A DNA stretch of 56,087 nucleotides from Candidatus Brocadiia bacterium (GTDB lineage Bacteria; Planctomycetota; Brocadiia; SM23-32). How positions within the stretch are numbered: position 1 is the stretch's first letter; each line of letters starts with the position of its first letter. Shown in pieces: positions 822 through 54,670 of the stretch. Position numbers and translations under genes: made by a program. The notes under the pieces are model-generated. The model did no database searches. It worked only from the letters and a program-made list of their open reading frames with translations, and had not been told where the DNA came from. The DNA lies in NCBI GenBank assembly GCA_046538485.1, contig JBKHIT010000031.1, forward strand, positions 1 to 56,087. Direction: 5' to 3'.

Positions 822-857
822 AAGGGACTTAAGGGACAGAATGGACGTAAGGAACGG
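822..857. repeat. 9-bp tandem array (AAGGGACnn) x4
   Basis: aagggactt aagggacag aatggacgt aaggaacgg. Confidence 0.8.
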
Positions 858-964
858 GAAGAGCATCTGGAGCGGGGGGAAGGTAAAAATTGGGTTTAAT
901 TTTGTACTCTGCTCTCCAGTTCCCGCCCGTTATTCTTTTTTTCTCTCCCCTCTCAACTCAAAAC

Positions 965-2341
965 TCATCCGTGCGCTTCGTCCCAACCCTGATTCAGAAC
1001 TTCGGAAAGCTGCCGGACAGTTTCTGCATAATCGGTATCTTTGGCGACGTTTCGGTTTTCCTGCGGGTCGGTTCGGTGATCGTAGAGTTCGTACACTTCC
1101 GGCTCGCCACTTTCGTGATCCTGCCACTCGGTATACCGGAAATCATCGGTTCGAATGGTATACCCCATAATGTTGCCGCCCCTGGGATACTGGCTAAAGG
1201 CAGCTTTTTTCAGCGGTTGGGCCGGGTCCTCCAGGAGATGAGTGAGGCTCTGTCCCTCCAAATGTTCGGGTAAGGGCAGGTCGCAGATATCGCAGAGCGT
1301 CGGATACATGTCGACAAATTCCACGAGACTGTTGCTGACGCTTCCCGGTTTGTTCATACCCGGGACGCCCAGGATCATCGGAGCGCGTGCGTCGATTTCG
1401 AAGTTGGTGTGTTTGCACCAGGAAGCGTGTTCGCCGAGTTTCCAGCCGTGGTCTCCCCAGAGGATGATGGCGGTGTCTTTGCGCATGTCCAGACGTTCCA
1501 GTTCCGCCAGAACGCGTCCTACCTGAGCGTCCACGTAGCTGACGCACGCGCGATAGCCGTGGATAAGCTTGCGCGCAAGACCGTCCGGGATCGGGCCCGA
1601 TTCCGGCATGCCGAAATACCCCCGGAGTTCGCCGAAATTAGTCAGGGAGTATTTGGTGACGTTCTCGGGCTCGAAATAGTTCGGGGGCAGTTCGATCGAA
1701 TCTTCGGAGTACATATCCCAGTATTTCCGCGGGCAGCAGAAGGGGAGGTGAGGTTTGATGAACCCGAGGCCCATGAAAAAGTCCGATCCCTGGAGTTCCC
1801 GCAGTTTTTCTATGGCTTCCTCCGCCTGTTTGCCATCTCGATACGCGCTGTCAGGCACATCGGCCCCTTCGAACGCAGGCCCGAGTCCCCGGCGACTGCT
1901 CCCTTTCTTTTCCATCTCTTTATTTGTCGTTTCAATCGCCTCGATCGCTTCGTCTGTCAGGTATCCGCGACCTTTCCAGTCGCCGCTCACACGACTCGGT
2001 TCCTGAGTCCAGCCCTGCGGGTCGTCAGGGAGATGGTGATAGACTTTACCCAGAGAAATGCTCTGATAACCGTTATTTTTGAAGTGTTGGGGCAGAGTCA
2101 GCACGTCGGGCATATTCTCCCGAAGATGCGTCCGCAATCCGTAAATCTCCGTGGTGTCGGGACGCACCCCGCTGAGCACGCTGCATCGGGACGGTGCACA
2201 GACCGCCTGCTGGCAGTAGGCACGATCAAAAAGCAAGCTCTCTTGAGCCAGCTTGTCGATATGGGGTGAGATGACGTTGTCGTGTCCGTAACATCCCAGT
2301 TCGGGGCGCAGATCGTCGAGGACGATAAAGAGAACGTTCAT
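965..2341 (-). CDS. Formylglycine-dependent (S1) sulfatase, iduronate-2-sulfatase-like; no signal peptide
   Basis: NVLFIVLDDLRP start, CAPSRCSVLSG (CxPxR) motif, GKVYH, KPHLPF, WGDHGWKLGEH, WCKHTNFE. Confidence 0.92.
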   Translation of the reverse strand: MNVLFIVLDDLRPELGCYGHDNVISPHIDKLAQESLLFDRAYCQQAVCAPSRCSVLSGVRPDTTEIYGLRTHLRENMPDVLTLPQHFKNNGYQSISLGKVYHHLPDDPQGWTQEPSRVSGDWKGRGYLTDEAIEAIETTNKEMEKKGSSRRGLGPAFEGADVPDSAYRDGKQAEEAIEKLRELQGSDFFMGLGFIKPHLPFCCPRKYWDMYSEDSIELPPNYFEPENVTKYSLTNFGELRGYFGMPESGPIPDGLARKLIHGYRACVSYVDAQVGRVLAELERLDMRKDTAIILWGDHGWKLGEHASWCKHTNFEIDARAPMILGVPGMNKPGSVSNSLVEFVDMYPTLCDICDLPLPEHLEGQSLTHLLEDPAQPLKKAAFSQYPRGGNIMGYTIRTDDFRYTEWQDHESGEPEVYELYDHRTDPQENRNVAKDTDYAETVRQLSEVLNQGWDEAHG

Positions 2342-2428
2342 GGTAAATCCTCGGAGAAAAAGTCGGTGGTCGAGTGAGCCGGATTGTAATGGACTTATTT
2401 GCGGAAAGGCAACCGCGATTGGAGGGAG

Positions 2429-2516
2429 GGGGGACTAAAGGGACCAAAGGGACGGAAGGGGTACCTGAAACGTGACAACAAACTGCTTGAAATGCGACAT
2501 TCTGTAAGTCCCTTCA
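2429..2516. repeat. 9-bp-array element with conserved core, copy 1 (similar to 11050-11151)
   Basis: AAGGGACnn units, then acctgaaacgtgacaacaaactgcttgaaatgcg...tgtaagtcccttcag. Confidence 0.85.
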
Positions 2517-3203: not shown

Positions 3204-3238
3204 AGTCCCTCAGGTCCCTTCCGTCCCTTAGGTCTCTT
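3204..3238. repeat. 9-bp tandem array, GTCCCTT orientation
   Basis: agtccctca ggtcccttc cgtccctta ggtctctt. Confidence 0.8.
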
Positions 3239-8722: not shown

Positions 8723-11027
8723 ATCCTCCGAAAACCAACATTGTGACCGTCGGTGGCGGATGTTGCTGGTCGGCATCCGGCTCCTGGGAGCATTGCTGCT
8801 TTTGACCGCGGTCGGATTTGAACTGGCAAGCGTTCTGTTCCCGTTTCCGCGCCGGAAACTGCGGGAAGCGCGTTCGGTCCGGGCCTCAGCGGTTGTGCGC
8901 GACCGGAACGGGTGTATGCTCCGGCCTTTCCTCGGGGAAAAGGACTGCTGGCGAATCCGGGTCGATCTGGAGGAGATAAGTCCATGGCTCATCGAGGCGA
9001 CGATTGCTGTGGAGGATGAACGATTCGGCAGCCACCCGGGAGTCGATCCCATGGCCATCGGCCGGGCCCTCTTGAGCAATCTGAAAGCCGGCCGGATTGT
9101 CTCCGGGGCGTCCACAATAACGATGCAGAACGTCAGACTTGTCACACCTCGGCCTCGCAACCTTCGCGCGAAAGCAATCGAAGCATTCCGGGCGCTTCAG
9201 ATGGAAGGGGTTCAGTCCAAGAGGGAAATTATGGAATGTTATCTGAACCTCGCCCCGTACGGAGGCAACCTTGTCGGCGTGGAATCGGCCTCACGTGCGT
9301 ATTTCGGGAAAAGCGCCGACGACCTCACGCTTGGTGAAGCCGCTTTGCTGGCCGGACTGCCTCAGTCTCCCTGTCGTTTGAGACCCGATAGATATCCGGA
9401 AAAGGCCAGGAAACGCCGCAACCACGTCCTGGTTCGCATGCTCGAGCAGGAGTTTATTTCTTTTGACCAGTTCAGACGTGCCCTGCGGTCTCCGGTCAAA
9501 GCAGCGCGCCAATCTTTCCCGTTTGAAACCCCACATCTTGCCCGCAGTTTGAAACAGCGACACCCCCGGCGGAGGGAACTACATACGACCATTGATTTAG
9601 CGACTCAGCATGCCTGCGAACGGATAGCTCGGGAAAAAGTATCGCGACTACGGGCTCACGGCGTGACGAATGCGGCGGTGGTTGTGCTGGAGAACGATAC
9701 GGGGTCGGTCCGGGCGCTGGTAGGATCCTGCGATTTCTTCGCCCGCAAAGATCAGGGACAGGTCGATGGCACGCGGGCTCTCCGCTCGCCGGGATCGACT
9801 CTGAAACCGTTCACGTATGCTCTGGCCTTTGACAGCGGTGTGGCCACTCCTGCGACCGTTGTGGGAGATGTCCCTGTTCACTACCGGGATTATGACCCGG
9901 AGAATTATGACGGACAGTTCCGGGGGCCGGTGAGTGTCCGCGAGGCGCTTCGGGATTCTCTGAATGTGCCAGCCGTTATTCTTCTGGAGCGTGTTGGACA
10001 GAGACGCCTGTACAGTCTGCTGCGGGAACTGGGGTTGCGAAGTCTGACGAAACCACCTCAGCATTACGGTCTCGCCTTAACGCTCGGATCGGCGGATGTC
10101 CGGCTTCTGGAACTCACCGGGGCCTACGCCACACTGGCCCGGATGGGTAAACACCTGCCGGTGAGGTTCCTGAAGGATCAGGAAACACTGGAACCGGAGC
10201 CGGTTTTAGGTGAGGGAGCCTGCTACCTGGTTGCGCAGATTCTTTCGGATCCCGAGCATTTAAAGGAGGTCTTGCCTGAGGAGGCTGACCAGGAACTGCG
10301 GATGGCCTGGAAGACCGGGACGTCCCATGGACATCGGGATGCCTGGACGGTGGCGTTCACCCCGGATTTTACGGTCGGGGTATGGGTGGGCAACTTCACG
10401 GGCCGATCTTCGTCAGCACTGGTCGGAATAGAGGCGGCGGCGCCGATTGCGGCTGCCATAATGCGGCGTCTCCACGCGGACCGTCCACGGCGATGGTACG
10501 GAACTCCGGCGGAAATCGTGAAACGGAAAATCTGCGCGGTGAGTGGTCAGTCGGCCGGCCCTCACTGCGAGAAAACTGCCGAAGGTTATTTTATCCGCGG
10601 GAAATCGAGCCCGCGTGAATGCACCGTGCATATACCGGTGCAGACGGAGGGCTCAGAGAAACCGCGGATTGGGGAGGCCTGGCCGCCGGGGCTGGCCGCC
10701 TGGTTCCGCCGGCACGAGCCGGATCGGCCTCTGGTTGGCGCTGGGGGATTACGGGGCGCAGCCGGCCGGAAAAGCCCGAAAATTATCCTCCCGGCATCCG
10801 GAGAATCGTACGTGAAACTCTCCGAAAGTTCGGTGTCCGGGGATCAGCGGCTGGCTCTGTTGGCCGATGCGGCCGTGGATCGGGTGTTCTGGTTTGTCGA
10901 TGACCGGTTTGTGGTGTCGGGCCCGCCGCTGGAGAAAGTCTTCTGGGAAATGGAGTTCGGCCGGCACCGGATCGCGTGCTCGGATGAGAAGGGACGGACG
11001 GCCTGCGTGACGATTACGGTGCGGTGA
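8712..11027 (+). CDS. pbpC: Penicillin-binding protein 1C
   Basis: Transglycosylase motifs EDERF, GASTITMQ; transpeptidase SPGSTLKPF, SLN, KTGTS; C-terminal PBP1C domain. Start uncertain: GTG at 8712 overlapping the A2M stop, or ATG at 8760. Confidence 0.93.
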   Translation: MSNESSENQHCDRRWRMLLVGIRLLGALLLLTAVGFELASVLFPFPRRKLREARSVRASAVVRDRNGCMLRPFLGEKDCWRIRVDLEEISPWLIEATIAVEDERFGSHPGVDPMAIGRALLSNLKAGRIVSGASTITMQNVRLVTPRPRNLRAKAIEAFRALQMEGVQSKREIMECYLNLAPYGGNLVGVESASRAYFGKSADDLTLGEAALLAGLPQSPCRLRPDRYPEKARKRRNHVLVRMLEQEFISFDQFRRALRSPVKAARQSFPFETPHLARSLKQRHPRRRELHTTIDLATQHACERIAREKVSRLRAHGVTNAAVVVLENDTGSVRALVGSCDFFARKDQGQVDGTRALRSPGSTLKPFTYALAFDSGVATPATVVGDVPVHYRDYDPENYDGQFRGPVSVREALRDSLNVPAVILLERVGQRRLYSLLRELGLRSLTKPPQHYGLALTLGSADVRLLELTGAYATLARMGKHLPVRFLKDQETLEPEPVLGEGACYLVAQILSDPEHLKEVLPEEADQELRMAWKTGTSHGHRDAWTVAFTPDFTVGVWVGNFTGRSSSALVGIEAAAPIAAAIMRRLHADRPRRWYGTPAEIVKRKICAVSGQSAGPHCEKTAEGYFIRGKSSPRECTVHIPVQTEGSEKPRIGEAWPPGLAAWFRRHEPDRPLVGAGGLRGAAGRKSPKIILPASGESYVKLSESSVSGDQRLALLADAAVDRVFWFVDDRFVVSGPPLEKVFWEMEFGRHRIACSDEKGRTACVTITVR

Positions 11028-11049
11028 AGCTGAGTGCGGAACAAAATAT

Positions 11050-11151
11050 AAGGGATGTAAGGGACCAAAGGGACAGAAGGGACACCTGAAACGTGACACA
11101 AACTGCTTGAAATGCGGCGTTGTGTAAGCCCCTCAGGTCCCTTCTGCCCTT
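11050..11151. repeat. 9-bp-array element with conserved core, copy 2; forward and inverted arrays could form a hairpin
   Basis: aagggatgt aagggacca aagggacag aagggacac, core ctgaaacgtgacacaaactgcttgaaatgcg, then agcccctc aggtccctt ctgccctt. Confidence 0.85.
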
Positions 11152-11460
11152 AACCCGCTTTCCTCAAGCGGCGCCAGTGCTGCAGCTGCGCGTCGGGATG
11201 CGGGACGGCAACTGCGGGGATTCTATTGTCGGCGAAATCTGGGAGGAAGCTCTGGAATAAATTGCACAGAAGAGTAAAATGCACGAGATCGGGAATCCCC
11301 GGGCAGTCTGAAAATGGAATGATGATTTTGATTGAATAAACATGTAATATACTTCAAGATCCCAAATCCAAGAGGAGCGGGAACTACTCGGGTTCTATGT
11401 GTAAAACGGGCGTGTTTTTGGCTCGATTTAAGCCTTTTGTTATTGCCGTGATTGATCAAC

Positions 11461-13440
11461 ATGGGAAAAAGCATCAGCGACGAATACTGTGACGCGCAAT
11501 CGTTTCTTGCCCATCGTCTGGACGACGATCTTGTCGAGGAATTCCGGGACGGTGATTTTGCCGAAAATCTGATGGATTATTTCCGTGGTCGGCCGGAGCC
11601 GCCCATTCTGTTTTCGGGCGACCGGTTATCGGACATCGCCTGTCTGGCGGAGGAATGTGATCCCCAGGAATACGCCTGGGAAAAAGAAATTGCCGATCAG
11701 GCGGTGGACGGGAAAGTGTATGGCGCCAGCAACGCCTACTGTCATCGTTTCCTGGATTTGCCGGAAGATTTTGAGTTCACGGAACATCCCAATCCGGATC
11801 CTCAGACCATTCACGGCATTAACCGGCAGCGGTGGTATGCCAGCCTGGCCCGCCAGTGCTGGCGGAACCAGGATCGTCGGTATTTCGATGCTCTGATGGA
11901 GCACTGGGACTTTTTTGTCCAGCGGGTTCCATTTGGTGATATGAAGGAGCGGATTTCAGCGTACAACGGCATCGGGGAGCCGTCACCCCCTGCCCCGTGG
12001 TGGCAGCTGGACTGCTATATCCGGCTTAAAAACTGGTACTGGGCCTACTGGTCGGTTCTTTACGCCAGCCAAATGACGCCGGAACGTCATACCGTGTTGC
12101 TCGCCCGGTGCCTGCGATTGTTCGATATCGTGGCGGCGCGCGGGATCGGACAGCACGAGCATAATTTTACCAGTATGCAGATGGAATCGTTGTATCTGTG
12201 GGCCGCTGCGCTGCCCGAGGTGATCGGAATGGATGTGTGGAAGAACGCGGCCCGCGTCAATCTGGAGTCCAGCCTGCGTCGCGCCGTCTTTGAGGACGGG
12301 GTGCAATGGGAAAAATCCGCCGGTTACCACCGTGGATGTATGCGATGGTACGGGACGCCGTATGCCCTGGGTCAGCGAATCGGTGATCCGTGGGCGGAAG
12401 AATACGGGGAAAAACTGCGCAAGATGGCAGAGTATCTCGACGCCGTGGTCACCCCCGATGGAAACACTTCACTGCTTTCGGATTCGGACCGGGTGGCGGA
12501 TTGGCGTTCTCCCATGGCTCTTATACAAAGTCTCTGGCCCGGCATGCGGCTGTGCAATCCCGTGCCCCCCTCATACTACAGCCTGTGGGCGACAAACGGA
12601 CGGACCTGGGAACAGCAAGAACCGAAACCCGCTCCGGCTGTGCGCGTTTTTCCCGAGGGAGGCGTGGGCGTGATGCGGGAGGGCGATGAAATGCTGATCC
12701 TCGATAACGGTCCGACCGATGCGGGCCACAGCCATTTCGACAATATGACCGTTCATTACGACGCCTTCGAAAAACCGATTATCGTGGATCCGGGCCGCCA
12801 TATCTACAACGGCGACCAGAAACGCGACTGGGTGATGAAACCCCAGAGCCACAATCTGATCATGCCGGAGGACCAGCCGATTGGCACGGATGACCGCGGC
12901 AATCCGCCCGCGGTGCGACGCGTCAGCCATGGCGACGATCGACTGGATACGGTGGAATCGGAGGCGCGAGATGACAGTTCTTTACTCACGACCGCATTCC
13001 GTGGATACCGTGTCGATCGCACGGCGTCGGCCCGCAGAACGGTGGCAATGGGGCGTGACCCCGAACAGCCCTGGCTGCTCGTGGTCGACCGCGTTCAGTC
13101 AGCTGAGCCACACACATGGACCAACAACTGGTTGTTTCCCACCGATCAGGACTTGAAGGGAGTCGAGGACCATTATGAACTTGAACTTGAATCGGGTGTC
13201 CAACTATTCTTGTTTTGGGTGGGTGATCTGCAACTCCGTAATGAGGAGCGGTTCTGGTGCCGAAACTACAACGAGCATGAACCGGCCCGATGGTTGCGAT
13301 TCTCCGGAGACCCGGTTGAACGTGAGATACGAGCCTTCGCGTTCATTCCCCAGCGCACGACATCTGAACCGGAGGTGGAGTTGAAAATTGTGGGAGAGAA
13401 AGTGCTGTTTGAATCTCAGAGTGTTGCGGTGAAAATTTAG
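11461..13440 (+). CDS. Heparinase II/III-like polysaccharide lyase, no signal peptide
   Basis: HNF, DGVQWEKSAGYH, GHSHFD, IVDPG, SHN motifs typical of heparinase II/III (PL12-like) proteins. Confidence 0.8.
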   Translation: MGKSISDEYCDAQSFLAHRLDDDLVEEFRDGDFAENLMDYFRGRPEPPILFSGDRLSDIACLAEECDPQEYAWEKEIADQAVDGKVYGASNAYCHRFLDLPEDFEFTEHPNPDPQTIHGINRQRWYASLARQCWRNQDRRYFDALMEHWDFFVQRVPFGDMKERISAYNGIGEPSPPAPWWQLDCYIRLKNWYWAYWSVLYASQMTPERHTVLLARCLRLFDIVAARGIGQHEHNFTSMQMESLYLWAAALPEVIGMDVWKNAARVNLESSLRRAVFEDGVQWEKSAGYHRGCMRWYGTPYALGQRIGDPWAEEYGEKLRKMAEYLDAVVTPDGNTSLLSDSDRVADWRSPMALIQSLWPGMRLCNPVPPSYYSLWATNGRTWEQQEPKPAPAVRVFPEGGVGVMREGDEMLILDNGPTDAGHSHFDNMTVHYDAFEKPIIVDPGRHIYNGDQKRDWVMKPQSHNLIMPEDQPIGTDDRGNPPAVRRVSHGDDRLDTVESEARDDSSLLTTAFRGYRVDRTASARRTVAMGRDPEQPWLLVVDRVQSAEPHTWTNNWLFPTDQDLKGVEDHYELELESGVQLFLFWVGDLQLRNEERFWCRNYNEHEPARWLRFSGDPVEREIRAFAFIPQRTTSEPEVELKIVGEKVLFESQSVAVKI

Positions 13441-13497
13441 AAATGCATGTCCCATTCGGGGGGAACGGCTTTTGTGATTCCTAAAAAGGAGAAGACG

Positions 13498-16400
13498 ATG
13501 CGTACAGCGTCTAAATTGTTGTTGGTGATTATTTGCGGTTGTACGTTTTTTCTGTCCAGTGCACGGGCTGCCAAAGACAGTGTGGCGACGGTCTCGTTGT
13601 TTGAGGAAGCGCCCACCCTCGACGGGGAAATCGAGCCGGGGGAGTGGGATGGTGCTGTGCGGACGACCGGATTCATGGCCCTGAAAGGAAGGTGGCTTGA
13701 ACGCGGGATGGGCGCCACCTATTGTGGGTTCACGCGCAAACGGCTATACGTGGCTCTTATCACCGAGCTGCCGCCGGATCAGCAGCTGAGGGCGCGGAAG
13801 AAATACCGTGACTCCGAGCTCATTTACGAGGACAGCTTTGAGATCTGGCTGGATCCATTCCGTAAAACAGAGGACGGTTGGAAAGGGGGAGGCACGTATT
13901 TCCAGACCATGGGGATTTCCAATGGCACCATTTCGGATACGAAATTCAGCAAAGAGGGCGCTCCCGATAAAGGCTGGAACGGAAACTGGGAATTCGCGAA
14001 CGGCATCCATACAGAGGTCACCGATGGGCCGAAGTGGGCCCAGCGCAATGGCGTATGGGTGGCCGAACTGAGCATACCGTTCAAGGATCTGGGCTGGGAG
14101 GGCGATCCGGTGGGACGCTCCATCGGCGTGCTGGTGGCGCGTAACTTCAAGCGCGCACGAGGATGGAAACAGGTTACCTGGTTTCCCCACAAAGGATCGT
14201 TTGTGAGCTGGTTTCAATATCCTGAAATAAAGCTCACCGAAGATAAACCATCGGTACAGATCCAGAAGCTGGGTGATAATGTGCTTTCCGGAGAAATCGA
14301 CCTGGAAACCCGTATCTTCAATCCCGGCCCCGAGCGGAGAGCAAAGGTGGCCCTGAAAATATCGTCTTCTGACATGCCGTCGGTGGAGGAGAAAAAGGTT
14401 ATGACGCTCCCGGCCGGTGAGGCCGTGACATACAAGCACAGCGTGCCCGCGGAACGGTTCCATGAAACCGCCAAACATAAGCTTGATCTGAAAGTGTCCT
14501 CCGAAGATGGCAGTAGCCAGTATCTGAACTATTTTGCGAACATCAAACAGCGGGGGCCGTTCTGGAACGTGCGCACCGGGCCCAACCCCAAAAAGGCCGT
14601 GCGACTGGCGTATTATCCCTCGTATAAATTCATCAAGGTTCGCGTGGATACCCGCGAACTTGCGAAGGACGCTGCTCAGGCCGAACGCGCCGACGTGCAG
14701 GTGAAATCGCCGGACGGTGAAATGGTGTTTGAAGGTGATTTTTCGTGGGAGGGCGACATCGCGGAGCAGCGATTCGATATCGGAGAGTTATCCGATGGCC
14801 AATATACCGTCGAGATCAAGGTGACTGGGGGCGATTACGAACGCAGTTTCAACCGCAATTTCCGTCGTGAGCATTATGTGTGGGAAAACAATAACCTTGG
14901 CGTCAGCGCAACTGTTTTTGAGCCGTTTGAGCCCATCGAAGTGGAGGGCAATGAAGTATCGGTCGTGATGCGGAAATATCGAAAAGGCGGATTGGGGCTG
15001 TGGGAATCCGTGCAGGCCGTGGGCAACGATCGGCGGAGTCAATACAGAGAATTGCTGACGGGTCCCATTTCCCTGCATATTGGGGATGAAACCCTCGACG
15101 GAGAAGGCCGGTTCACGAGCACGGAAGATCATAAAGTGGTCTACAAAGGGCGCGCCGACCATCCGGCAGTTCAGGTGCACAGCCGCACTGTGACGGAATT
15201 CGATGGATGCATGCGTGTGGAACTCACGCTGCGTCCCGGTAAAAAAGATGAAGAGCTGAAAAATCTCTACCTGGACATACCGGTGAAAGATGAACTGGCG
15301 TCGTTGTTCCACGTGACCACCACTGGATTGCGTCGCAATCCGGCCGATGTCACACCCGAAGGTAGTGGCCGTATCTGGGACAGCCGAGACTTTCCCGATG
15401 GCGAGTGGTATGGCAATTTCAACCCGTATTTATGGATCGGTGGCCCGGAACGAGGTATTTGCTGGTTCGCGGATAACGATCGAGGCTGGGTCCTGGATGC
15501 CAATCCCGGGGATCCATCCGAGTCCGTTCCAAGCCAGGAGCTGATCCGCAAAGGCGACACATTGACGTTGCGGGTCAATCTGGTGCAGAAACCGATCACG
15601 CTGGAGGACAAACGCACGATCGTGTTTGGATTGATGGCCAGCCCGGCCAAACCTATGCGGAAAGACTGGCGCAAATACGGGTTCAATCGCCAATACGAGG
15701 ATTACCCATGGGTTCGATGGATGGGATCGACGTACTGGGGCGCCGCCCAGACGATGAAAGAAACCTATCCCCTGAACGCCGATTTCTCCATCCTGGATAA
15801 GACCCAGGAAATGCGGTTGACAGGCAGCCGTGTCGGGAAAGGGGACTTCCTGCGTACGTGGGAACGGCGCAATCTGTCCGATTACGAGGCCCGGGGCCGC
15901 AAAAGCAAAAAACAGATCTTGAGCCTGGTGAATGGGACGCTGGAACGGGGCCGAGCCGCTCATAACAACGGCTACATGAACGTGTACTGGGAAGAATTCC
16001 ACCGTGTTTCCCGTTTCCACCCGGAAACCCAGGTGTTTGGAAACGAGTGGAGCGGTGGATACGGCAAGGGCAACATGCATAGCCTGACGCCCAGTTATCT
16101 CAATTTTCAGTGCTGGTATGGCGCGGAGTTTCTGCGACGCGGCGTCGGACTTTACTTCGACAACACGTTCCCGAAAAGGGCGTATGATCCGGTGACGACC
16201 AGTGCGTATCGTTTGCCCAATGGCGATATTCAGCCCAGCGCCAATATGTGGCGGCATCGCGAGTATCTGCGGCGCATCTGGACGCTGCACAAACAGCTGG
16301 CTCCCGCCGACACGCCGCCGATCATGATGCTCCACATGACGAACACCCATATCGTGCCGTATATGGTGTGGAATCAGTCCAATCTCGATCTTGAATGGTT

Positions 16401-16929
16401 CTACGGCCCCGATCCCCAGCAGTCAAAATATCCCCACGCGTTGCTTCGCACGGAATCAATGGGGCTGCAAACGGGGAATCTCCCACTCGCCCTGGCGCAT
16501 ATCAAGGACGTCGAATCGAAAGAGGAGCGGCAGAGGGCTCAACGCAGTCGATTCGGGACGCTGTTCGTGCATGAAATCAAATGGCGATATAAAGGCGCCG
16601 GAGCGAAAATGATGCGGAAAGTTCTGGATTTCGGATACGGGCGCGAGGATTGCGCGGTCTATAACTACTGGGATCCCGACGATCCCGTCATGACGTCCAA
16701 TTCCGAGGTGAAATCCATCCTGCTGGAGCGGGACGGTCAACTGCTGCTCGTCCTGACCACCTGGAACGGCGAACCGGAGACCGTGACGGTGTCTCTGGAC
16801 AGCCAGAATCTGGACGTTGATCCCGAGACCGTCGTGGACGCTGAGACGGAGGAGTCCATCGAACTTGACGGGGATGAGTTTGCGCTCGAGATGGAAGGCT
16901 ATGGCGTGCGCATGATTCGAATCAGATAG
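13498..16929 (+). CDS. Secreted DUF6067-like putative glycoside hydrolase with N-terminal CBM9-like domain
   Basis: RBS aaggag, signal peptide (..SSARA), PTLDGEIEPGEW, GLYFDN; paralogous to 40422-43976. Confidence 0.6.
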   Translation: MRTASKLLLVIICGCTFFLSSARAAKDSVATVSLFEEAPTLDGEIEPGEWDGAVRTTGFMALKGRWLERGMGATYCGFTRKRLYVALITELPPDQQLRARKKYRDSELIYEDSFEIWLDPFRKTEDGWKGGGTYFQTMGISNGTISDTKFSKEGAPDKGWNGNWEFANGIHTEVTDGPKWAQRNGVWVAELSIPFKDLGWEGDPVGRSIGVLVARNFKRARGWKQVTWFPHKGSFVSWFQYPEIKLTEDKPSVQIQKLGDNVLSGEIDLETRIFNPGPERRAKVALKISSSDMPSVEEKKVMTLPAGEAVTYKHSVPAERFHETAKHKLDLKVSSEDGSSQYLNYFANIKQRGPFWNVRTGPNPKKAVRLAYYPSYKFIKVRVDTRELAKDAAQAERADVQVKSPDGEMVFEGDFSWEGDIAEQRFDIGELSDGQYTVEIKVTGGDYERSFNRNFRREHYVWENNNLGVSATVFEPFEPIEVEGNEVSVVMRKYRKGGLGLWESVQAVGNDRRSQYRELLTGPISLHIGDETLDGEGRFTSTEDHKVVYKGRADHPAVQVHSRTVTEFDGCMRVELTLRPGKKDEELKNLYLDIPVKDELASLFHVTTTGLRRNPADVTPEGSGRIWDSRDFPDGEWYGNFNPYLWIGGPERGICWFADNDRGWVLDANPGDPSESVPSQELIRKGDTLTLRVNLVQKPITLEDKRTIVFGLMASPAKPMRKDWRKYGFNRQYEDYPWVRWMGSTYWGAAQTMKETYPLNADFSILDKTQEMRLTGSRVGKGDFLRTWERRNLSDYEARGRKSKKQILSLVNGTLERGRAAHNNGYMNVYWEEFHRVSRFHPETQVFGNEWSGGYGKGNMHSLTPSYLNFQCWYGAEFLRRGVGLYFDNTFPKRAYDPVTTSAYRLPNGDIQPSANMWRHREYLRRIWTLHKQLAPADTPPIMMLHMTNTHIVPYMVWNQSNLDLEWFYGPDPQQSKYPHALLRTESMGLQTGNLPLALAHIKDVESKEERQRAQRSRFGTLFVHEIKWRYKGAGAKMMRKVLDFGYGREDCAVYNYWDPDDPVMTSNSEVKSILLERDGQLLLVLTTWNGEPETVTVSLDSQNLDVDPETVVDAETEESIELDGDEFALEMEGYGVRMIRIR

Positions 16930-16991
16930 GATCCGGAAAAGAGTTCTGGAGGGGTTTTGAGTATAAGACCGGTAATGAACGGGAGAAGATT

Positions 16992-19184
16992 ATGAAAAAA
17001 AATTATGCGGTAATGGAAATCGGCCGGCATGGCGTCAGGGGGATGGCAGATAGAATTAACATGTTCGTGTTCTGCGTCGTGATTCTGAGCTTTCTCTCCC
17101 CGCTGTCCGTTCATGGGCAGCCCGCTGAAATCGCCCTGGATTTTGATGAAGACGGGCTCGCCGGTGTTTCTTTCGATGGAATAGATGTGCTTTCGGATCC
17201 CGCCCCGAAGGTGATCCGCGTGGTGATGTCCGATAAATTCCGCGATCGCAACACTGAATCACAGAAACGCGAGATGTATGTGCCCGATGATCGCAACTTT
17301 TCGGAAGCGGATACGGAGATAATCAAGCGCCGTTTCGATCCGGGAAAGAAGGTTTGTACCCTGGAATTGGATTGGGGCGAAGTGATCATTGATTATCAGC
17401 CGGGGCCCGAAGGGCTTGATTTTCATGTGGAGGTGATAAACGAATCGGATAAAATCATCGAGTACGTGCGACTGAAACTTCTGGAGCTGAATTTTCCGGG
17501 ACAGGTTGAGACCGAGTGGGTCAGGAAACTGCCCCGCTGGGCCGTTTCGGAGTGCAATATCGGCGGGCCTGACCTGCTGCGCGCGCTCTATCGGAAGGGC
17601 CGGCAGAGCGGTCAAGTGCTGTGGTTGAGCACCCAGCCGAACCGTCCCATGCGACAGAGGTTGCAGCGACGGGGTGAGGATAGATGGGAAGTTCAGGCAC
17701 GCGCCGGGAATCCCGAGAGAGGAGTCGAGGTGAAATCGGGGCGTAACGGTTTCGATGGGATATGGGATTCCCGACCCATAAGGCCCGGGGGGAAAGACGA
17801 GTATGAGCTTAGCTTACGGTTTGCTCCCGGTGATGCCGACCCTTATGAGCTGGCCTCGGACGTTTACCGGCGATTCGGAGAGGCTTATCCCTCCACTTTC
17901 CAGTGGCCGGACAGACGACCGATCGCTGCGGTTCATGTGGCAGATTCCCATTCGGTGAGCGAAGAGAACCCGCGAGGCTGGCGCCATGGTATTAACCCGC
18001 CCGACGGCTGGAGTATAGAAGATGAGAACAGTCATGAGGTCTTTTATGAAGCTGCGATGAAGGGCGCGGAACGCATAATAGACGTTTGCAAGCGGATGGG
18101 CGCCCAGGGGGTTGTGGTCTGGCAGGTCGAGGGAATGGAGTTCCAGGGCCCGGCCTATTATGGGGAACCAAGGCATCTGCGCTATGTGGCTCCGGAGATG
18201 GACGCGGCCGCCGACGATTTCTTTGCCAAAATCAAAGATGCTGGCCTTCGAGTGGGTATTACCATTCGCCCGCCGATTCACTTGCCCCGAAGCGCCGAGA
18301 CCGGCGAGGAAGTGAAGTGGGCGGAGATGACCAAACTGGTGGGACGCAACTGGATGCCTGAGATTCCCCGGAACAGTACCCATCTCTATGATCCCGAAGA
18401 AGCCTGGTGCGTATTGAACCGCCTGGCTAATAAGATCGAATATGCCAGAAAACGCTGGGGAGCGACGCTTTTTTATCTTGATACCAATAGCTTCTGGAGA
18501 CCGCGCGTCCTTGGTGAAGAGGGGCCGACCGACTGGCAGACCAAACGGCTGCCGGCGGCCATGTTTGGAACTCTCAATAAAATGTTTCCAGATGTGCTGA
18601 TTATACCAGAACATCAGTATCCGGAATATTGGGCCCATGGGGCTCAGTACCAGCATGTCCCCGGCATGTTTGGGACTATAACCCCGCCCGGCGTGCGTTA
18701 TGCCTATCCGGAGTCTTTTTCGGTTATAACCGGCGATACCGGGCATATCCTTGAAAACCGTGCGAATTATGTCCGCGCCGCCGTGGAAGGCGACACTTTC
18801 TGGGGGCATGGTTGGTTTGGCGGAAGTATGGAAAAGATCAATGCCCTGTTTCAACCTGCCGTGAAGCTGGCCCCGTATCACGTTGAGGTGGACGCTGAGG
18901 AGAAGGAGATTTTGGTGACGGAGCGGGAGGTCGCCGGGCTCCAGGTCTCCGATGTCTTGGATAACGACGCGGAAGTAGAGGTTGTGGGACGTGAGAAGTT
19001 CGGGGAACTGGAGGCTCTGACTGAATTTTTTACCAAACGACTGGAGGCAGATGGCTCGGTTCCACAGAGGCGCGTTTATGTGCGCTATGAGGAGGGCATT
19101 TCCCCCGAGGCGTTGAATGCAGTGCTGGATGCTATAACCGCCGGGGGCGGGATAATAGCCTGGAGCCAGGCGGAGGAGGATTGA
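16992..19184 (+). CDS. Secreted hypothetical protein, putative glycoside hydrolase; C-terminal ExbD/TolR-like domain
   Basis: 730-aa ORF with hydrophobic signal-like segment; clear block similarity to 36405-38048 (WPDRRPI, KIEYARKRWG, FYLDT, PDVLIIPE). Confidence 0.6.
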   Translation: MKKNYAVMEIGRHGVRGMADRINMFVFCVVILSFLSPLSVHGQPAEIALDFDEDGLAGVSFDGIDVLSDPAPKVIRVVMSDKFRDRNTESQKREMYVPDDRNFSEADTEIIKRRFDPGKKVCTLELDWGEVIIDYQPGPEGLDFHVEVINESDKIIEYVRLKLLELNFPGQVETEWVRKLPRWAVSECNIGGPDLLRALYRKGRQSGQVLWLSTQPNRPMRQRLQRRGEDRWEVQARAGNPERGVEVKSGRNGFDGIWDSRPIRPGGKDEYELSLRFAPGDADPYELASDVYRRFGEAYPSTFQWPDRRPIAAVHVADSHSVSEENPRGWRHGINPPDGWSIEDENSHEVFYEAAMKGAERIIDVCKRMGAQGVVVWQVEGMEFQGPAYYGEPRHLRYVAPEMDAAADDFFAKIKDAGLRVGITIRPPIHLPRSAETGEEVKWAEMTKLVGRNWMPEIPRNSTHLYDPEEAWCVLNRLANKIEYARKRWGATLFYLDTNSFWRPRVLGEEGPTDWQTKRLPAAMFGTLNKMFPDVLIIPEHQYPEYWAHGAQYQHVPGMFGTITPPGVRYAYPESFSVITGDTGHILENRANYVRAAVEGDTFWGHGWFGGSMEKINALFQPAVKLAPYHVEVDAEEKEILVTEREVAGLQVSDVLDNDAEVEVVGREKFGELEALTEFFTKRLEADGSVPQRRVYVRYEEGISPEALNAVLDAITAGGGIIAWSQAEED

Positions 19185-19331
19185 TTACCGCACTGGAGTA
19201 TTAACAGGAATAACCTGGTGAGATTGTAAACGGCAAGGTGCTTATTCATGTAACTTTTAGCACCCGGAACCGGGCACAATACATCGATGCCGGAATTCGT
19301 AAAGACCTTCACCCTTACATCTGCGGGATTT

Positions 19332-19494
19332 TGCTATGCCGTTTTTTTCGGTGAGTCAGACACGCCTTAAAACGCTCAAAAGCTACATAGAGAATCAGGA
19401 AGAACATCATAAAACTATGACATTTAAAGATGAATTGCGGAAGTTTCTTGATAAATGTTCTGTCGATTATGACGAAGAATATCTTTGGGATTAA
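19332..19494 (+). pseudogene. IS200/IS605-type (Y1/RAYT-like) tyrosine transposase C-terminal remnant
   Basis: Hand translation FSVSQTRLKTLKSYIENQEEHHKTMTFKDELRKFLDKCSVDYDEEYLWD*; upstream YAV is in another frame across a T7 run; N-terminal HUH half missing; not in the ORF track. Confidence 0.85.
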
Positions 19495-19529
19495 TTTGTC
19501 TGTAGAATTGCGGTGGCCGGAGGAGAAGT

Positions 19530-52165: not shown

Positions 52166-52328
52166 CGTGTGAGAGGACGGTCCGACACGGTCAAACGCCA
52201 GCCGTGGAGGAAGGTATATCTCCTGCGGCCGGAAGCTTTTGCATTCAGGCGGCGCGGAAAAAAATGTTCCCATAATTTCCTTCGTCTTGTGGGCCCGGCC
52301 GCACCAGCGCATAAATTTTCAGCCGGGC

Positions 52329-54542
52329 TCATTCCGCCTCGTGAAGGGTCAAGATCTCGCCCTCTTCGGCGCGAATTTCGAGAACAGAAGCGTCGAGGAT
52401 TTTCTGTGTCGCTCCCGGACGCCTGACGGCGGCTTTTTTCCACGGGTTTTTCAAGCGGAAGGTGCCACCGGCCAGACTTTCCACGCGCACGGGGCCGACC
52501 AGACCGTTTTTTCGTGAAGCGCTGACTTTGAAGGCACCGTCGGTGAGTATCCCATCGAATTGCACCTCGTCCCACCGGGAGGGCGCTCCGGCGAAAAGAT
52601 AGTTGACACCTCTCCGGGTGTGCAAAAGCATCTCCTGGATCGCCGCCACGGATCCCATACCGCCGTCCATCTGCATCACGTCGGTCTCGTTGAAATTCCC
52701 GCCCATAGCCGGTGCCCCCATCAGGGAAATACCGGAAGGACGGCAGTTATGGAGCGTGCCTTCGCCTTTGTTTGTGAAGAAACGGTCGAAAACTTCAAGC
52801 CAGAGTTCCGCGGCTTCCGGATTGTCCGCCCGGGTGTTAATGGCGGATGCCCAGGACAGGCACCAGCCCGACCATTTACCGGGTCCTCGGAGTATCCATT
52901 CGGCCAGGCTTCGCTGGACGACCGGTTCCCATTTTTCGGCGTGAGGGTCGATCACGTCGAAGGGGGCGATTGCGCCGAGATGGGAATGGTGTCGGTGGCT
53001 TTCCTCCAGGGCCTGATTTTCCCAGAGAGCGATCCTTTCTTCGCCCTCATCGCCGATCAAACAGGCTTTCGGCAGGTTGTCCAGGATCTGCTGCCAGATC
53101 GGTTTGGGGTCTTCCGCCAGCACCGAACATGCTTCGAGCAAGTCTTCGCAAAGGCGGTGGATGCAGGCGAGCTGGAAACTGGCGTTGGGACCCCATCCTC
53201 TGCCGTCTTTGTTGAAATATTCCGGGGATATACCGACCGGCAGACGGAACGTTCCGTCGTCCGTGCGTTCAAGCATTTCTTCGTAGACGCGCATTGTGCC
53301 CCGCATGAACGGGAACGCGGTCTCCCGGAGAAATTCGACGTCCTGACTGTACCGGTAGTTTCGGAACATCATGCTGGCCACCCAGGCCGTGCACCCGTGA
53401 TCCGCTGAATGACCCCAGTAACCGGTCATGAATCGGCAGTCATCGCTGACGGCATGCGGGAGCATCAGGCCATCATCGATTCCGAGGAAATTTCGGGCGT
53501 TGTCACGGAGCGTTTCCTCCCAACCAGCGATCATCTCCCAGAGGGGCTGGAGGTGGTGAAGCAGGTTGCCATGGAAGGCAGGCTGATAGCACATCTGGAC
53601 GTTTACGTTGAAGTGATAATCGCTGGACCAGGGAGGCATGCGATACTCTTCGATCCACGGTCCCTGGAGGGTGGCCGGCACCCCGTCGGGATTTGTGAAT
53701 CCGGCGAATTTGTACATCCCATAGTCGTAGAGGAATTGCAGGCGTTCGTTTGGCAGGTCGATTTCCGGAACCCGATCCCAGTAACTCTTCCACCAGTTCT
53801 GAGAGCGCTCCCTGGCGTGCTGGAATCCCTCCTCGCCGGCTTTCGATAGTATCGTTGAGACGGAGTCAACGGCATCGGTTTTGTTCCCGCGACCGGTTGC
53901 AAGGGCAAGAATGCCATTGCTGCACGTCCATCCCACGCAGATTGCGGGATCGACGGGGCATTTCTGGATCCAACCCTCGATTCCTTCGGTTTCGACCATT
54001 TCGGGCCGCTCGAATTGCAGTTCCGCGAGTTCCTCGCCGACGAATTCCCATGCTGGAACGGGTTTGATTTCAGGGAGCGGCACCTGCGGCGGGAACTCAA
54101 TCAGCAGCAGTGGCTGTTTCATATCGTGCAGGATCCGGACGATGCCATTCCGTTCGCGAGGAGACGTTTCAATTTCGACAAGACCGTCGCAAATCGACAG
54201 ATCTGCTCCACCGATCCTAACTTCGGAATCCCACTGGAGATCGATTCGCCCGACGGGCAGGACGGTGGGCCGATCAGGTTCACCGGAAGCCGTTGAATCG
54301 CTGCGGAAAAGGTCGTTCAGCGATTCTTCCTCGTCTTCTTTGAGGTGTTTGCGAATGTTTTCGTAATTCATCTCCGGTGTCCATTGGGAACCACCGCGGT
54401 GATCCCACAGGTCGGCGCGTCCGATGGTGATGCGGAGCGTATTCTCATTGCCCCAGAGAATCGTGCCCATGCGTCCGTTCCCCTGCAATATTCCGGTATG
54501 GGTTCGCGGCAGGGGGAAATCCCAATGATAGCGGCGTGACAT
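52329..54542 (-). CDS. GH95-like glycoside hydrolase (alpha-L-fucosidase-like), no signal peptide
   Basis: GNGRMG, PATLQG, WSSDYHFNVNVQMCY, SPE, HRHHSHL, QMDG..G...AIQEMLL. Confidence 0.8.
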   Translation of the reverse strand: MSRRYHWDFPLPRTHTGILQGNGRMGTILWGNENTLRITIGRADLWDHRGGSQWTPEMNYENIRKHLKEDEEESLNDLFRSDSTASGEPDRPTVLPVGRIDLQWDSEVRIGGADLSICDGLVEIETSPRERNGIVRILHDMKQPLLLIEFPPQVPLPEIKPVPAWEFVGEELAELQFERPEMVETEGIEGWIQKCPVDPAICVGWTCSNGILALATGRGNKTDAVDSVSTILSKAGEEGFQHARERSQNWWKSYWDRVPEIDLPNERLQFLYDYGMYKFAGFTNPDGVPATLQGPWIEEYRMPPWSSDYHFNVNVQMCYQPAFHGNLLHHLQPLWEMIAGWEETLRDNARNFLGIDDGLMLPHAVSDDCRFMTGYWGHSADHGCTAWVASMMFRNYRYSQDVEFLRETAFPFMRGTMRVYEEMLERTDDGTFRLPVGISPEYFNKDGRGWGPNASFQLACIHRLCEDLLEACSVLAEDPKPIWQQILDNLPKACLIGDEGEERIALWENQALEESHRHHSHLGAIAPFDVIDPHAEKWEPVVQRSLAEWILRGPGKWSGWCLSWASAINTRADNPEAAELWLEVFDRFFTNKGEGTLHNCRPSGISLMGAPAMGGNFNETDVMQMDGGMGSVAAIQEMLLHTRRGVNYLFAGAPSRWDEVQFDGILTDGAFKVSASRKNGLVGPVRVESLAGGTFRLKNPWKKAAVRRPGATQKILDASVLEIRAEEGEILTLHEAE

Positions 54543-54635
54543 CTGCGATCTCCTGTGTTTTCGGGATTGGAAAAGAGGTAGGTTATAGGCAGGAGGAGGG
54601 GGAAGCAAATTGGTGCGAGTGGCATAAAGCAGGAG

Positions 54636-54670
54636 AAGGGGCGAAAGGGACTCAAGGGACGGAAGGGACG
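54636..54670. repeat. 9-bp tandem array x4
   Basis: aaggggcga aagggactc aagggacgg aagggacg. Confidence 0.8.

Follow-up and report, generated by a model that had tools for sequence, protein, structure and literature searches.

The AAGGGACnn arrays found in the window, the whole stretch of 56,087 nt of Candidatus Brocadiia DNA analysed in the present work, are probably the cognate repeat of one clade of proteins that combine a four-helix bundle with a suffix domain and belong to the 23S rRNA intervening-sequence (IVS) protein family. The gene-bearing copy of this repeat is the segment 25618-26341, and about 70 other arrays in the genome, eight of them in the window, are gene-less copies which form few hairpins and are mostly solo. 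The best reading of these arrays is that they are the dispersed repeats of a horizontally moving cassette, with an organisation that resembles the REPIN/RAYT systems. The gene and the repeat recur as a pair in bacteria that are only very distantly related, and this suggests a repeat family, not described so far, that is linked to a four-helix-bundle protein; no description of such a pairing was found in the literature.

Arrays in the window

The heptamer AAGGGAC occurs 29 times in the window, compared to an expected count of 7.93 +/- 2.64, and a count of at least 29 was reached in 0 of 100 shuffles. The copies lie mostly in arrays of 2-4 units with a 9-nt period, and 7 isolated copies within genes correspond to the chance level. 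All eight array sites reported in the initial annotation are present within a few bases of where they had been placed. The features are as follows.

822-855, + strand: four-unit solo array with two exact units, 110 nt beyond the 3' end of the sulfatase gene 965-2341 (- strand)
2429-2514, + strand: decayed hairpin element, 5' of the sulfatase gene
3205-3238, - strand: solo array of 4 units, reading GTCCCTT on the + strand, ~60 nt upstream of the alpha-2-macroglobulin gene
11050-11150, + strand: hairpin element, immediately 3' of a PBP1C-type gene
25618-25712, + strand: upstream hairpin of the cassette, ending 22 nt ahead of the start codon
25735-26313, + strand: four-helix-bundle gene with suffix domain, 192 aa, intact
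26317-26341, - strand: downstream cassette arm of 3 units, beginning 4 nt past the stop codon
28561-28585, - strand: degenerate solo array, 76 nt 3' of cstA, with 2 units by the criteria used (28570-28585)
54636-54669, + strand: four-unit solo array, 3' of mazG and 5' of a GH95 gene

The element at 2429-2514 consists of an array (2429-2462) in which two exact units at 2438-2453 are flanked by degenerate ones, a 45-nt loop and a single inverted unit (2508-2514); its RNA fold is weak (-23.1 kcal/mol, z -2.0), and its flanks cluster with those of the 11050 element. The latter, which had been described as paired with an inverted array, is indeed so paired, its 4-unit array (11050-11083) being followed, after a loop of 44 nt, by an inverted arm in degenerate form (11128-11150), and its RNA folds at -44 kcal/mol (z -4.9). 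The solo arrays at 822-855 and 54636-54669 are unstructured when read as - strand RNA, the strand of both mazG and the GH95 gene, and the fold of the array at 3205-3238 is not significant (z +1.67). An intrinsic terminator was rejected, since the solo arrays lack a fold (z +0.31, +0.35, +1.67) and no T-run is visible in them. A role in termination, as had been suggested, is unsupported for solo arrays, because their RNA is unstructured (z +0.3 to +1.7) and identical array orientations are found both 5' and 3' of genes.

The cassette and its gene

The upstream hairpin of the cassette is composed of three AAGGGAC units (25618-25642, +), a 36-nt loop and four GTCCCTT units (25679-25712, -), with a predicted RNA fold of -43.9 kcal/mol (z -4.8). 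The downstream arm is an inverted repeat of 25618-25642 that matches it at 24 of 25 bases, spacers included, and the gene enclosed between them is presumed to be the master gene of the AAGGGAC repeat family.

The product of this gene scores above the curated cut-offs of the two NCBIfam models that define a four-helix-bundle protein with suffix domain, with 62.5 bits for TIGR04258, the suffix-domain model (cut-off 40), and 26 bits for TIGR02436 (cut-off 24). It does not reach the threshold of Pfam PF05635 (22.9 bits vs 33.8, E = 1.1e-4), and its relatives also fall below that threshold, at 24-32 bits. The predicted structure has a pLDDT of 89.1, and its top Foldseek matches are the up-down four-helix bundles XCC0516 (2GSC; probability 1.00, target TM 0.75-0.83) and BT_0352 (2RLD), with weak E-values of 0.05-0.19; a profile search against PDB sequences matched 2gsc_A weakly, at E = 0.06. 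A C-terminal Zn_ribbon_Top1 domain scores above its cut-off in 4 of 6 relatives, a domain match that hints at nucleic-acid binding. The cassette lies between a sulfatase gene and cstA, and an Rfam search for rRNA gave no match in the window. None of the RNA runs contains the cassette sequence.

Gene and motif in other genomes

Among 192 ORFs near AAGGGAC arrays at 80 loci in other genomes, the only matches to TIGR04258 were the genes that lie between two array sets ~600 nt apart, at loci L015 and L075 (= L076). TIGR04258 genes are present in all five array-holding genomes, which represent five phyla, and in three of the five the gene is directly flanked by AAGGGAC hairpins; the background frequency of TIGR04258 is 27 of 301 genomes in the phylum of the present genome and 0 of 14 control genomes. 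The identical 7-mer recurs in distant phyla, each time with TIGR04258 genes, and gene and motif travel together across phyla. Satellite counts, defined as 3-unit matches with at most one mismatch, are 373, 349, 167, 68 and 36 in these five genomes and 61 in the present one, with 0 for the reversed pattern, so that array-holding genomes carry tens to hundreds of gene-less copies each. Two genomes count against the cassette reading: in G336 and G337, with 68 and 36 array matches, a gene of the AAGGGAC clade was not found. Both are MAGs, in which the gene may be unassembled or lost.

In a tree of 37 proteins, the six proteins flanked by AAGGGAC, which come from the present genome and from five unrelated MAGs, group with a single AAGGAC protein in one clade (SH-aLRT 99). 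The motif labels require 22 changes on this tree, compared to a mean of 29.6 for shuffled labels, and a value as low was obtained in 0 of 200 shuffles. Common descent by itself would lead gene and motif to be inherited together, so this pattern is no proof of recognition. As a negative control, TIGR04258 genes were found in 10 of 30 same-family relatives, and all of these have their best matches in other clades; their flanks contain no AAGGGAC unit, and no AAGGGAC array occurs in any of 24 genomes of the same family.

Five other four-helix-bundle genes of the present genome were examined, and each is flanked by arrays of its own motif (T[CT]AGAAC, CACGGACNGA, GTGGACNNN and ATAGGTCNN). Elsewhere in the genome these motifs are seldom found, with 1 to 7 arrays each vs 57 AAGGGAC arrays of at least three units, and the paralogues C97 and C44 group in the tree with foreign proteins that have the same motifs. 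The proposed association of the arrays with four-helix-bundle genes needs to be corrected for this genome, where AAGGGAC is found at only 1 of ~6 such genes because each gene has its own motif. The suggestion that the arrays are footprints of a mobile four-helix-bundle cassette was essentially right, given that the gene lies between near-identical inverted arrays and that the same clade and motif occur in distant phyla.

Genome-wide distribution and unit structure

Exact AAGGGAC 7-mers occur 606 times in the genome, with a spacing of exactly 9 nt in 62 cases and 18 nt in 19, and the genome-wide scan for tandem arrays called for in the initial annotation yields 77. Their intergenic location is borne out in 71 of the 77, as judged by a crude gene caller of our own, in a genome that is 81% coding; the other 6 lie in coding sequence and extend into gene ends. 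This distribution led to rejection of a collagen-like coding repeat (AAG GGA CNN = Lys-Gly-X) here, while the same reading fits some foreign matches, such as L072, which has weak matches to collagen-like adhesin models.

An unbiased test of the core considers only units that have an exact unit on either side, the two flanking units being spaced by 18 nt (n=43). The composition of this middle unit is A43 A43 G38 G28 G43 A43 C43, and its two spacer bases are near-random. In 26 hairpins the spacers of opposing arms are complementary at 47 of 116 positions (41%); retention of the core in these hairpins is owed partly to the selection criteria, and the middle-unit test agrees with it. The 7 nt of the core are conserved and the two spacer positions drift.

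Just 5 of the 57 arrays of at least three units are paired, above the 99% null level, with an inverted array no more than 130 nt away, so most arrays are unlike cassette arms or REPIN doublets. In other genomes doublets are commoner. As for a MITE, whose marks would be terminal inverted repeats and a target-site duplication, the hairpin forms show inverted arms. One larger composite repeat family contains 22 of the 77 arrays, which may have spread passively with it, whereas 46 of the 77 have unique flanks; spacer usage differs genome by genome. The genome matches the Y1_Tnp transposase model 9 times, never within 5 kb of an array; such transposases could mobilise short repeats. Sulfatases make up 9 of 117 array-flanking genes vs 107 of 3301 genes genome-wide, which is a weak functional theme. 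Many arrays lie where two co-directional genes are separated by so short a gap that a separate promoter and terminator would hardly fit.

Short interspersed repeats and periodic arrays of other kinds also crowd the genome. The latter include the families CAGAGGT, GCTGGTT, GATCACC and CACGAAG, and a four-helix-bundle gene was detected for none of these four, which counts against the cassette reading.

Strain variation

Recombination has its breakpoints at the arrays, as is seen in a related strain (run X3) whose cassette is inverted there and has lost most of the gene: one contig consists, in order, of 25025-25613, the reverse complement of 25632-25835, and 26319-27044 (589 + 204 + 726 = 1519 nt), with the breakpoint at the downstream arm 26317-26341 and a gene-less hairpin as the product. 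Another X3 contig joins 11098, in the loop of the 11050 element, to 13061.

Strand bias

In the window, GTCCCTT lies on the strand of the adjacent gene in 8 of 9 arrays, with the 11050 array as the sole exception, in agreement with the initial annotation. The link to transcription that was drawn from this pattern is too strong genome-wide, where the bias is ~2:1 and inseparable from GC skew. After 11 hairpin members and the 6 coding-sequence arrays were left out, GTCCCTT was found on the gene strand in a ratio of 39:21 by nearest gene (p = 0.027) and 17:6 in co-directional gaps (p = 0.035). Of 54 arrays that could be scored, 36 have GTCCCTT on the strand that is locally richer in G (Fisher p = 0.027), and where gene strand and skew conflict, 10 arrays follow the gene and 11 the skew, so neither predictor can be separated from the other.

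Alternative explanations

The arrays could be cis-regulatory RNA elements of the host, in which unstructured, pyrimidine-rich (GUCCCUUNN)n tracts of mRNA would act, independently of the four-helix-bundle protein, as Rho-loading, stability or translation-control sites, in line with the first alternative of the initial annotation. This explanation, which is considered improbable, accommodates the intergenic position of 71/77 arrays, the GTCCCTT orientation in the window (8/9) and the genome (39:21), the lack of RNA structure in solo arrays and the many short co-directional gaps. It is opposed by the absence of the motif from all 24 same-family genomes searched, which means that a host factor would need to be lineage-specific, and by the identical 7-mer in distant phyla, always with TIGR04258 genes; moreover, the arrays have no T-run or stem and are found on the 5' as well as the 3' side of genes, the functional theme of the flanking genes is weak, and GC skew explains the bias equally well. 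Replication may instead set the strand, if one replication strand is favoured in the insertion or retention of arrays, in parallel with hairpin repeats moved by single-strand transposases, and gene orientation merely correlates. Despite the preference for the G-rich strand (36/54), the 10 to 11 split and the 9 Y1-transposase matches, this is very unlikely: the strand of the window arrays tracks gene orientation through four direction switches, a pattern that replication cannot produce, gene orientation itself shapes the local skew of a fragmented MAG, and the Y1 genes all lie more than 5 kb from arrays.

The arrays might also be neutral debris, produced by slippage and gene conversion in the cassette arms and scattered by host recombination or by hitch-hiking in other mobile repeats, with no function and no role for the protein. 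The abundance of short interspersed repeats and periodic arrays in this genome, the 22/77 arrays within one composite family, the genome-specific spacer usage, which fits within-genome spread, and the recombination and deletion at arrays in the X3 strain lend themselves to such an account. Little credence is given to it, since the core stays AA[G/a][G/a]GAC while spacers are near-random and arm spacers are only 41% complementary, and neutral decay would erase cores too; unique flanks in 46/77 arrays, and the same core in hundreds of copies in unrelated phyla, also argue against it.

Proposed mechanism and comparison with known systems

Under the preferred cassette reading, the cassette protein probably binds the AAGGGAC arrays. 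It would do so as a probable oligomer, with one subunit per unit of the 9-nt period, and the 25735-26313 protein would be expected to prefer (AAGGGACNN)4 or the complementary repeat, in single-stranded or duplex DNA or in RNA, to scrambled cores and the paralogue motifs. Such binding would conserve the core at unlinked sites, and the system would comprise one resident gene and many non-autonomous repeats, as in REPIN/RAYT systems. The 2:1 strand bias could reflect either selection or a preference of insertion that acts on single strands during transcription or replication, possibly due to the similarity of the purine strand AAGGGA to a ribosome-binding site. A single-stranded RNA/DNA binding site, the first alternative put forward in the initial annotation, is plausible. 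We know of no catalytic activity in the four-helix-bundle family, and for this reason the cassette reading lacks a dispersal mechanism.

In an excerpt of PMC4990558, the IVS in the 23S rRNA of Coxiella burnetii encodes S23p and is viewed as a selfish, horizontally acquired element. The cassette resembles such ORF-bearing IVSs in that a small gene of the same family lies in the loop of a long inverted-repeat stem, the ORF being enclosed by stem-capable repeats (25618-25642 vs 26317-26341). Insertion in a 23S rRNA helix is ruled out here by the lack of an Rfam match in the window and by the neighbouring sulfatase gene and cstA. The cassette differs from 23S rRNA IVSs in its position between protein-coding genes, in its arms, which are periodic 9-nt arrays of a clade-specific motif, and in the tens to hundreds of gene-less arm copies that are dispersed here.

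REP and REPIN repeats are reportedly accompanied by a RAYT gene (Bertels and Rainey 2011). The likeness lies in a resident gene flanked by its own repeat, in many short intergenic copies (71/77 arrays), in the presence of singlets and of inverted doublets that fold into hairpins, and in lineage specificity and orientation bias. The systems differ in that doublets do not predominate here (5/57 arrays), the repeat is a tandem 9-mer array rather than a palindrome, and the resident gene encodes a four-helix-bundle protein, a family with no transposition chemistry to our knowledge, rather than a Y1/HUH transposase.

Several oligomeric proteins recognise short units at a regular spacing: TRAP reads GAG/UAG repeats, MetJ tandem 8-bp metboxes, and the omega repressor heptad arrays. 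The AAGGGAC arrays share with these targets 3-5 or more short units that recur at a fixed period, the core being conserved and the spacers free; the cassette protein has an unrelated fold, and its putative binding would be to ~70 sites in direct and inverted arrangement. Avd, the accessory protein of diversity-generating retroelements, for which a nucleic-acid-binding role has been proposed, belongs to the same four-helix-bundle superfamily, but the cassette protein has an extra suffix domain and its annotated neighbours are the sulfatase gene and cstA. PF05635 is discussed in an excerpt of PMC10053308.

A broader proposal, which is possible but rather doubtful, is that IVS-family four-helix-bundle proteins are sequence-specific nucleic-acid binders and form with their arrays a new selfish or domesticated system, with an organisation like that of REPIN/RAYT and without a known transposase. 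Each clade would then read its own xxxGGAC-type 7-mer with one subunit per 9-nt unit, and the system would move between phyla, seed hundreds of intergenic sites and reshape operons by inversion and deletion. Short tandem repeat arrays of bacterial genomes that have long lacked an explanation would be accounted for as well.

The 23S rRNA IVS protein family is widespread, and no assigned function was found for it in the literature. A clade-specific match between protein and repeat, if true, would give the family a ligand that can be tested; the match is seen across phyla, with hundreds of gene-less copies per genome. It would also give an origin to many short periodic intergenic repeats and account for the presence of such genes inside operons and cas loci, which is noted in an excerpt of PMC3936711. 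For genome annotation, the arrays mark hotspots of inversion and deletion. As a minor observation, the foreign cassette at L015 lies just downstream of a 16S rRNA gene.

Period-9 AAGGGAC arrays in the window and the genome

AAGGGAC occurs 29 times in the window, compared to 7.93 +/- 2.64 expected occurrences, and none of 100 shuffled sequences reaches 29. The initial annotation had described arrays of AAGGGACnn units at 822, 2429, 3204, 11050/11125, 25617/25686, 26316, 28560 and 54636, and this description is borne out, since 22 of the 29 copies form period-9 arrays or inverted partner arms at these sites. The other seven copies are isolated, lie within genes and are about as numerous as chance predicts.

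The genome-wide scan that had been proposed was carried out on the 5.19 Mb of the genome (143 contigs; the window makes up the first 56,087 bases of contig C80), which hold 606 exact copies of the 7-mer. The distance between copies on the same strand is 9 nt in 62 cases and 18 nt in 19, and other distances below 60 nt are nearly absent. When an array is defined as at least two units spaced 9 nt, with at most one mismatch per unit and at least one exact unit, 77 arrays are obtained, comprising 20 with two units, 25 with three, 31 with four and one with six. According to a crude, purpose-written gene caller, which returned 3301 genes covering 81% of the bases, 71 of the 77 arrays are intergenic; the remaining six reach gene ends or sit in genes, and the sense strand reads AAGGGAC in all six.

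The conservation of the unit was evaluated in middle units (n = 43) with an exact unit on either side, the two exact units lying 18 nt from each other, where the counts along the 7-mer are A43 A43 G38 G28 G43 A43 C43 and the spacer bases are near-random. Since the 7-mer is kept and the spacers are near-random, the target of selection or homogenisation is the 7-mer rather than the entire 9-mer. The last unit is directly followed by T in 52 of the 77 arrays.

The four-helix-bundle cassette

The annotation had also proposed that the arrays are footprints of a mobile four-helix-bundle cassette, and the organization of the window gene upholds this idea, because the gene is flanked by inverted AAGGGAC arrays, the 3' array being an inverted copy of the first with 24 of 25 bases identical, spacers included.

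Features of the cassette (window coordinates)
25618-26341: whole cassette (array hairpin, gene, inverted array)
5' of the gene: hairpin of AAGGGAC x3, a 36-nt loop and GTCCCTT x4
25735-26313: four-helix-bundle gene
From four bases past the stop: GTCCCTT x3

The product of 25735-26313 matches TIGR04258, the four-helix-bundle suffix domain, with 62.5 bits and TIGR02436 with 26 bits, each over its cut-off, and lies under the Pfam threshold for PF05635, the 23S rRNA intervening-sequence protein. Its predicted structure (pLDDT 89.1) is a bundle of helices, with a late long helix contributed by the suffix, and the model's top fold matches, with weak E-values, are XCC0516 (2GSC) and BT_0352 (2RLD). 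A prediction with four copies of the protein gave a score of 0.09 (mark 0.42), which is taken as evidence neither for nor against a homo-oligomer.

About six four-helix-bundle genes are present in the genome, and the suffix domain occurs in four. The expected association of such genes with AAGGGAC holds for the window gene alone, and the other paralogues carry motifs of their own instead, which are almost restricted to their own genes, with 1 to 7 arrays each across the genome.

Array motifs at the paralogous four-helix-bundle genes
Contig C137: T[CT]AGAAC arrays, period 7, inverted between both sides
Contig C97, 28096-28716: CACGGACNGA
Contig C44, 74603-75154: GTGGACNNN
Contig C26: ATAGGTCNN

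In a sample of 30 loci from the phylum, nearly all genes have xxxGGAC or xxxGAC arrays on the 5' or 3' side, with a period of 9 nt or in some cases 10, and at least 10 of the 30 have an additional array within the gene, directly before the suffix domain. Such intragenic cognate arrays (many of the foreign loci L132-L161, and the C97 and C44 genes) are in frame at the junction of bundle and suffix and encode a linker of low complexity; in the AAGGGAC clade a conserved insert of two helices takes the place of the array. In one suffix-type clade (foreign loci L141, L147, L162 and L170) the C-terminal end is formed by a topoisomerase-type C4 zinc ribbon, which scores 39-42 bits against PF01396 (cut-off 32) and is matched by GRF zinc-finger models too. 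This ribbon, present in four of six relatives tested, hints that the family may bind DNA.

The motif tracks the protein clade

A quick maximum-likelihood tree was computed for 37 proteins, leaving out the fragments L134, L139, L150, L152, L155 and L158, and motif labels were assigned by eye. Six AAGGGAC proteins and one AAGGAC protein form a single clade (SH-aLRT 99), whose hosts are the genome studied here and Acidobacteria, Armatimonadota, Parachlamydiaceae, Pirellulaceae and Roseibacillus MAGs. The C97 protein groups with a Nitrospirales protein, CACGGAC being common to both, and the C44 protein groups with GTGGAC and ATGGAC proteins. The labels require 22 changes on the tree compared to a shuffled mean of 29.6, with none of 200 shuffles as low. 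As a negative control, TIGR04258 genes were found in 10 of 30 relatives from the same family; all ten loci match other clades best and, where a motif is detectable, carry the motif of those clades, with no AAGGGAC unit at any of the ten and no AAGGGAC array in any of 24 same-family genomes searched. The clade grouping and this control together imply that the motif goes with the protein clade rather than with the host.

Arrays in other genomes

When each species was represented by one genome and screened for three exact AAGGGAC units, at least 119 loci were obtained, and the matches listed include Planctomycetota, Verrucomicrobiota, Lentisphaerota, Chlamydiota, Acidobacteriota, Nitrospirota, Armatimonadota and others. 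Some of these matches, such as locus L072, resemble collagen-type coding repeats, and many others are hairpins of three to eight AAGGGACnn units, a loop without conservation, and three to eight nnGTCCCTT units. Among 192 ORFs near the arrays of 80 of these loci, TIGR04258 is found only in L015 (a Pirellulaceae MAG) and L075 (= L076, a Roseibacillus MAG), where the gene is enclosed by two sets of arrays with a spacing of about 600 nt.

In the co-occurrence check suggested by the annotation, TIGR04258 genes are present in all five array-holding genomes tested, from five phyla, compared to 27 of 301 genomes of the phylum and 0 of 14 controls. The gene is flanked directly by AAGGGAC hairpins in three of the five (loci L163, L164 and L165), and the remaining TIGR04258 genes of these genomes have arrays of AAGGACCTC, CACGGAC, GTAGGAC, GACGGAT or CCAGAAT.

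In L015 the hairpin-gene-hairpin cassette (1127-2405) lies directly 3' of the end of a 16S rRNA, in the rRNA operon spacer. In L082, a Chlorobiaceae MAG, three same-strand arrays about 650-750 nt apart (746-2178) separate two copies of a small ORF that weakly matches a BrnA antitoxin model (E = 2.6e-4). Carriage by phages was considered and rejected, as none of 48 viral-contig loci with the pattern encodes the protein according to a local profile derived from alignment A1; one contig filed as viral (L198/L199, 1201-1892) has two inverted arrays about 640 nt apart, between which this profile finds no four-helix-bundle gene.

Gene-less copies and their folding

Three-unit matches with at most one mismatch number 61 in the genome studied here and 373, 349, 167, 68 and 36 in five other genomes, the same search with the reversed pattern gives none, and each genome has only 0-2 cognate genes; the arrays persist as numerous gene-less copies. 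The leading spacers are GG, TT and GT in the present genome and AG and AC in one Acidobacteria MAG, and such genome-specific spacers fit a spread inside each genome. Flanks are unique in 46 of the 77 arrays, and 22 lie within one composite repeat family.

An inverted partner exists for 5 of the 57 arrays with at least three units, and the notion that solo arrays are halves of decayed hairpins was discarded because no partner exceeding the null level exists for 52 of the 57. As RNA, the hairpin forms fold strongly (-36 to -44 kcal/mol, z -4.8 to -5.5), and the solo arrays are without a fold (z +0.3 to +1.7). Of the 116 spacer positions compared between the arms of 26 hairpins, 47 are complementary, and the arms are therefore not merely young inverted duplications.

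Several functional candidates were also rejected. The array 5' of the A2M gene has no significant fold with the A2M start region, as Shine-Dalgarno/anti-Shine-Dalgarno pairing would require; sulfatase-like genes make up 9 of 117 flanking genes compared to 107 of 3301 in the genome, which is too weak a theme for a sulfatase regulon; and no Rfam match in the window reaches the gathering score. For ten hairpin loci from other genomes, Rfam gives sub-threshold miRNA-like hairpins and one 16S rRNA end, with no family covering the hairpins.

Arrays as recombination breakpoints

DNA contigs of four sequencing runs were compared over window positions 10000-29500; a search for RNA runs containing window 24000-29000 found none. 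A contig of 1519 nt in run X3, obtained in another study and about 95% identical, consists of 25025-25613, the reverse complement of 25632-25835, and 26319-27044. This order was reconstructed from the two joints, which are on opposite strands, and the lengths of the pieces add up to that of the contig (589 + 204 + 726 = 1519). Relative to the window, the cassette of this strain has been flipped at the arrays and lacks 25836-26318, which is most of the gene, so that a gene-less hairpin is left. The evidence is one contig with a depth of 7, but the arrays are shorter than the assembler's word length. The Roseibacillus gene (L075) is likewise flipped relative to its arrays.

Another X3 contig joins 11098, in the loop of the 11050 hairpin, to 13061, in a heparinase II/III gene, skipping 1962 bases; no homology is seen at 13061, and the joint is taken to be no more than a deletion in this strain, one end of which lies in a hairpin loop. 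Joints in run X1 from 11133 to 28629 and from 23832 to 25618 have sides of fewer than 30 letters and were put down to repeat cross-matches.

Strand bias

The annotation had claimed that the strand of the adjacent gene reads GTCCCTT, and within the window this stands for eight of nine arrays, across four switches of gene direction, the exception being, as stated there, the array at 11050, one half of a hairpin. Genome-wide, with 11 hairpin members and 6 coding arrays excluded, GTCCCTT lies on the gene strand in a ratio of 17:6 in co-directional gaps (p = 0.035) and 39:21 by nearest gene (p = 0.027), or 12:6 and 32:16, respectively, for arrays of at least three units. Of 54 scorable arrays, 36 also have GTCCCTT on the strand that is locally richer in G, and where gene strand and skew conflict, 10 arrays go with the gene and 11 with the skew. 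From these ratios and this split, the bias is real but modest, and skew predicts it equally well; only the short-range direction switches in the window argue for transcription over replication.

Interpretation

The arrays are the clade-specific repeat of a cassette that encodes a four-helix-bundle protein and moves between phyla, and they serve as recombination breakpoints. The four-helix-bundle protein would bind the arrays with one subunit per unit, binding of this kind would keep the 7-nt core conserved, and the system may be organised like REPIN/RAYT. Counting against the cassette reading, the cognate gene was not found in two array-holding MAGs, and we know of no enzyme that disperses the arrays. 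A further point against it is that the genome has nine Y1-family transposase matches elsewhere, which might act on short repeats. The genome also holds other intergenic periodic families, often strung in long non-coding islands (for example C48:75346-75500, C79:5700-5860, C17:263-293 and C3:6112-7265), with counts of 19 for (CAGAGGT)n, 10 for (GCTGGTT)n, 8 for (GATCACC)n and 11 for CACGAAGNN, the last forming hairpins in tandem series on C3; no four-helix-bundle gene was detected in the genome for any of these four families, which likewise counts against the cassette reading. The CCCTT within the unit resembles poxvirus-type topoisomerase IB sites, which is taken as a mere likeness.

Literature searches on the AAGGGAC 7-mer returned primer-type noise only, and no description was found of repeat arrays around four-helix-bundle genes of this type. 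The closest account, in an extract of PMC4990558, treats the Coxiella intervening sequence, which encodes S23p and is excised by RNase III, as a selfish element; extracts of PMC3936711 and PMC10910872, respectively, place 18 such genes within cas loci and name the family.

Other repeats

At 23600-24000, loose ends and joints are numerous and the depth of X1 contigs climbs from about 29 to 524, which points to a high-copy repeat situated between the sulfatase gene and the gene at 20728-23766. Scores of places in the genome, among them window 1-400 and C87:11800-12750, match a repeat of about 50 nt with CTGGACTTCAG...CTGGAGTTCAGAACGCG, and many contigs terminate in repeats like it.
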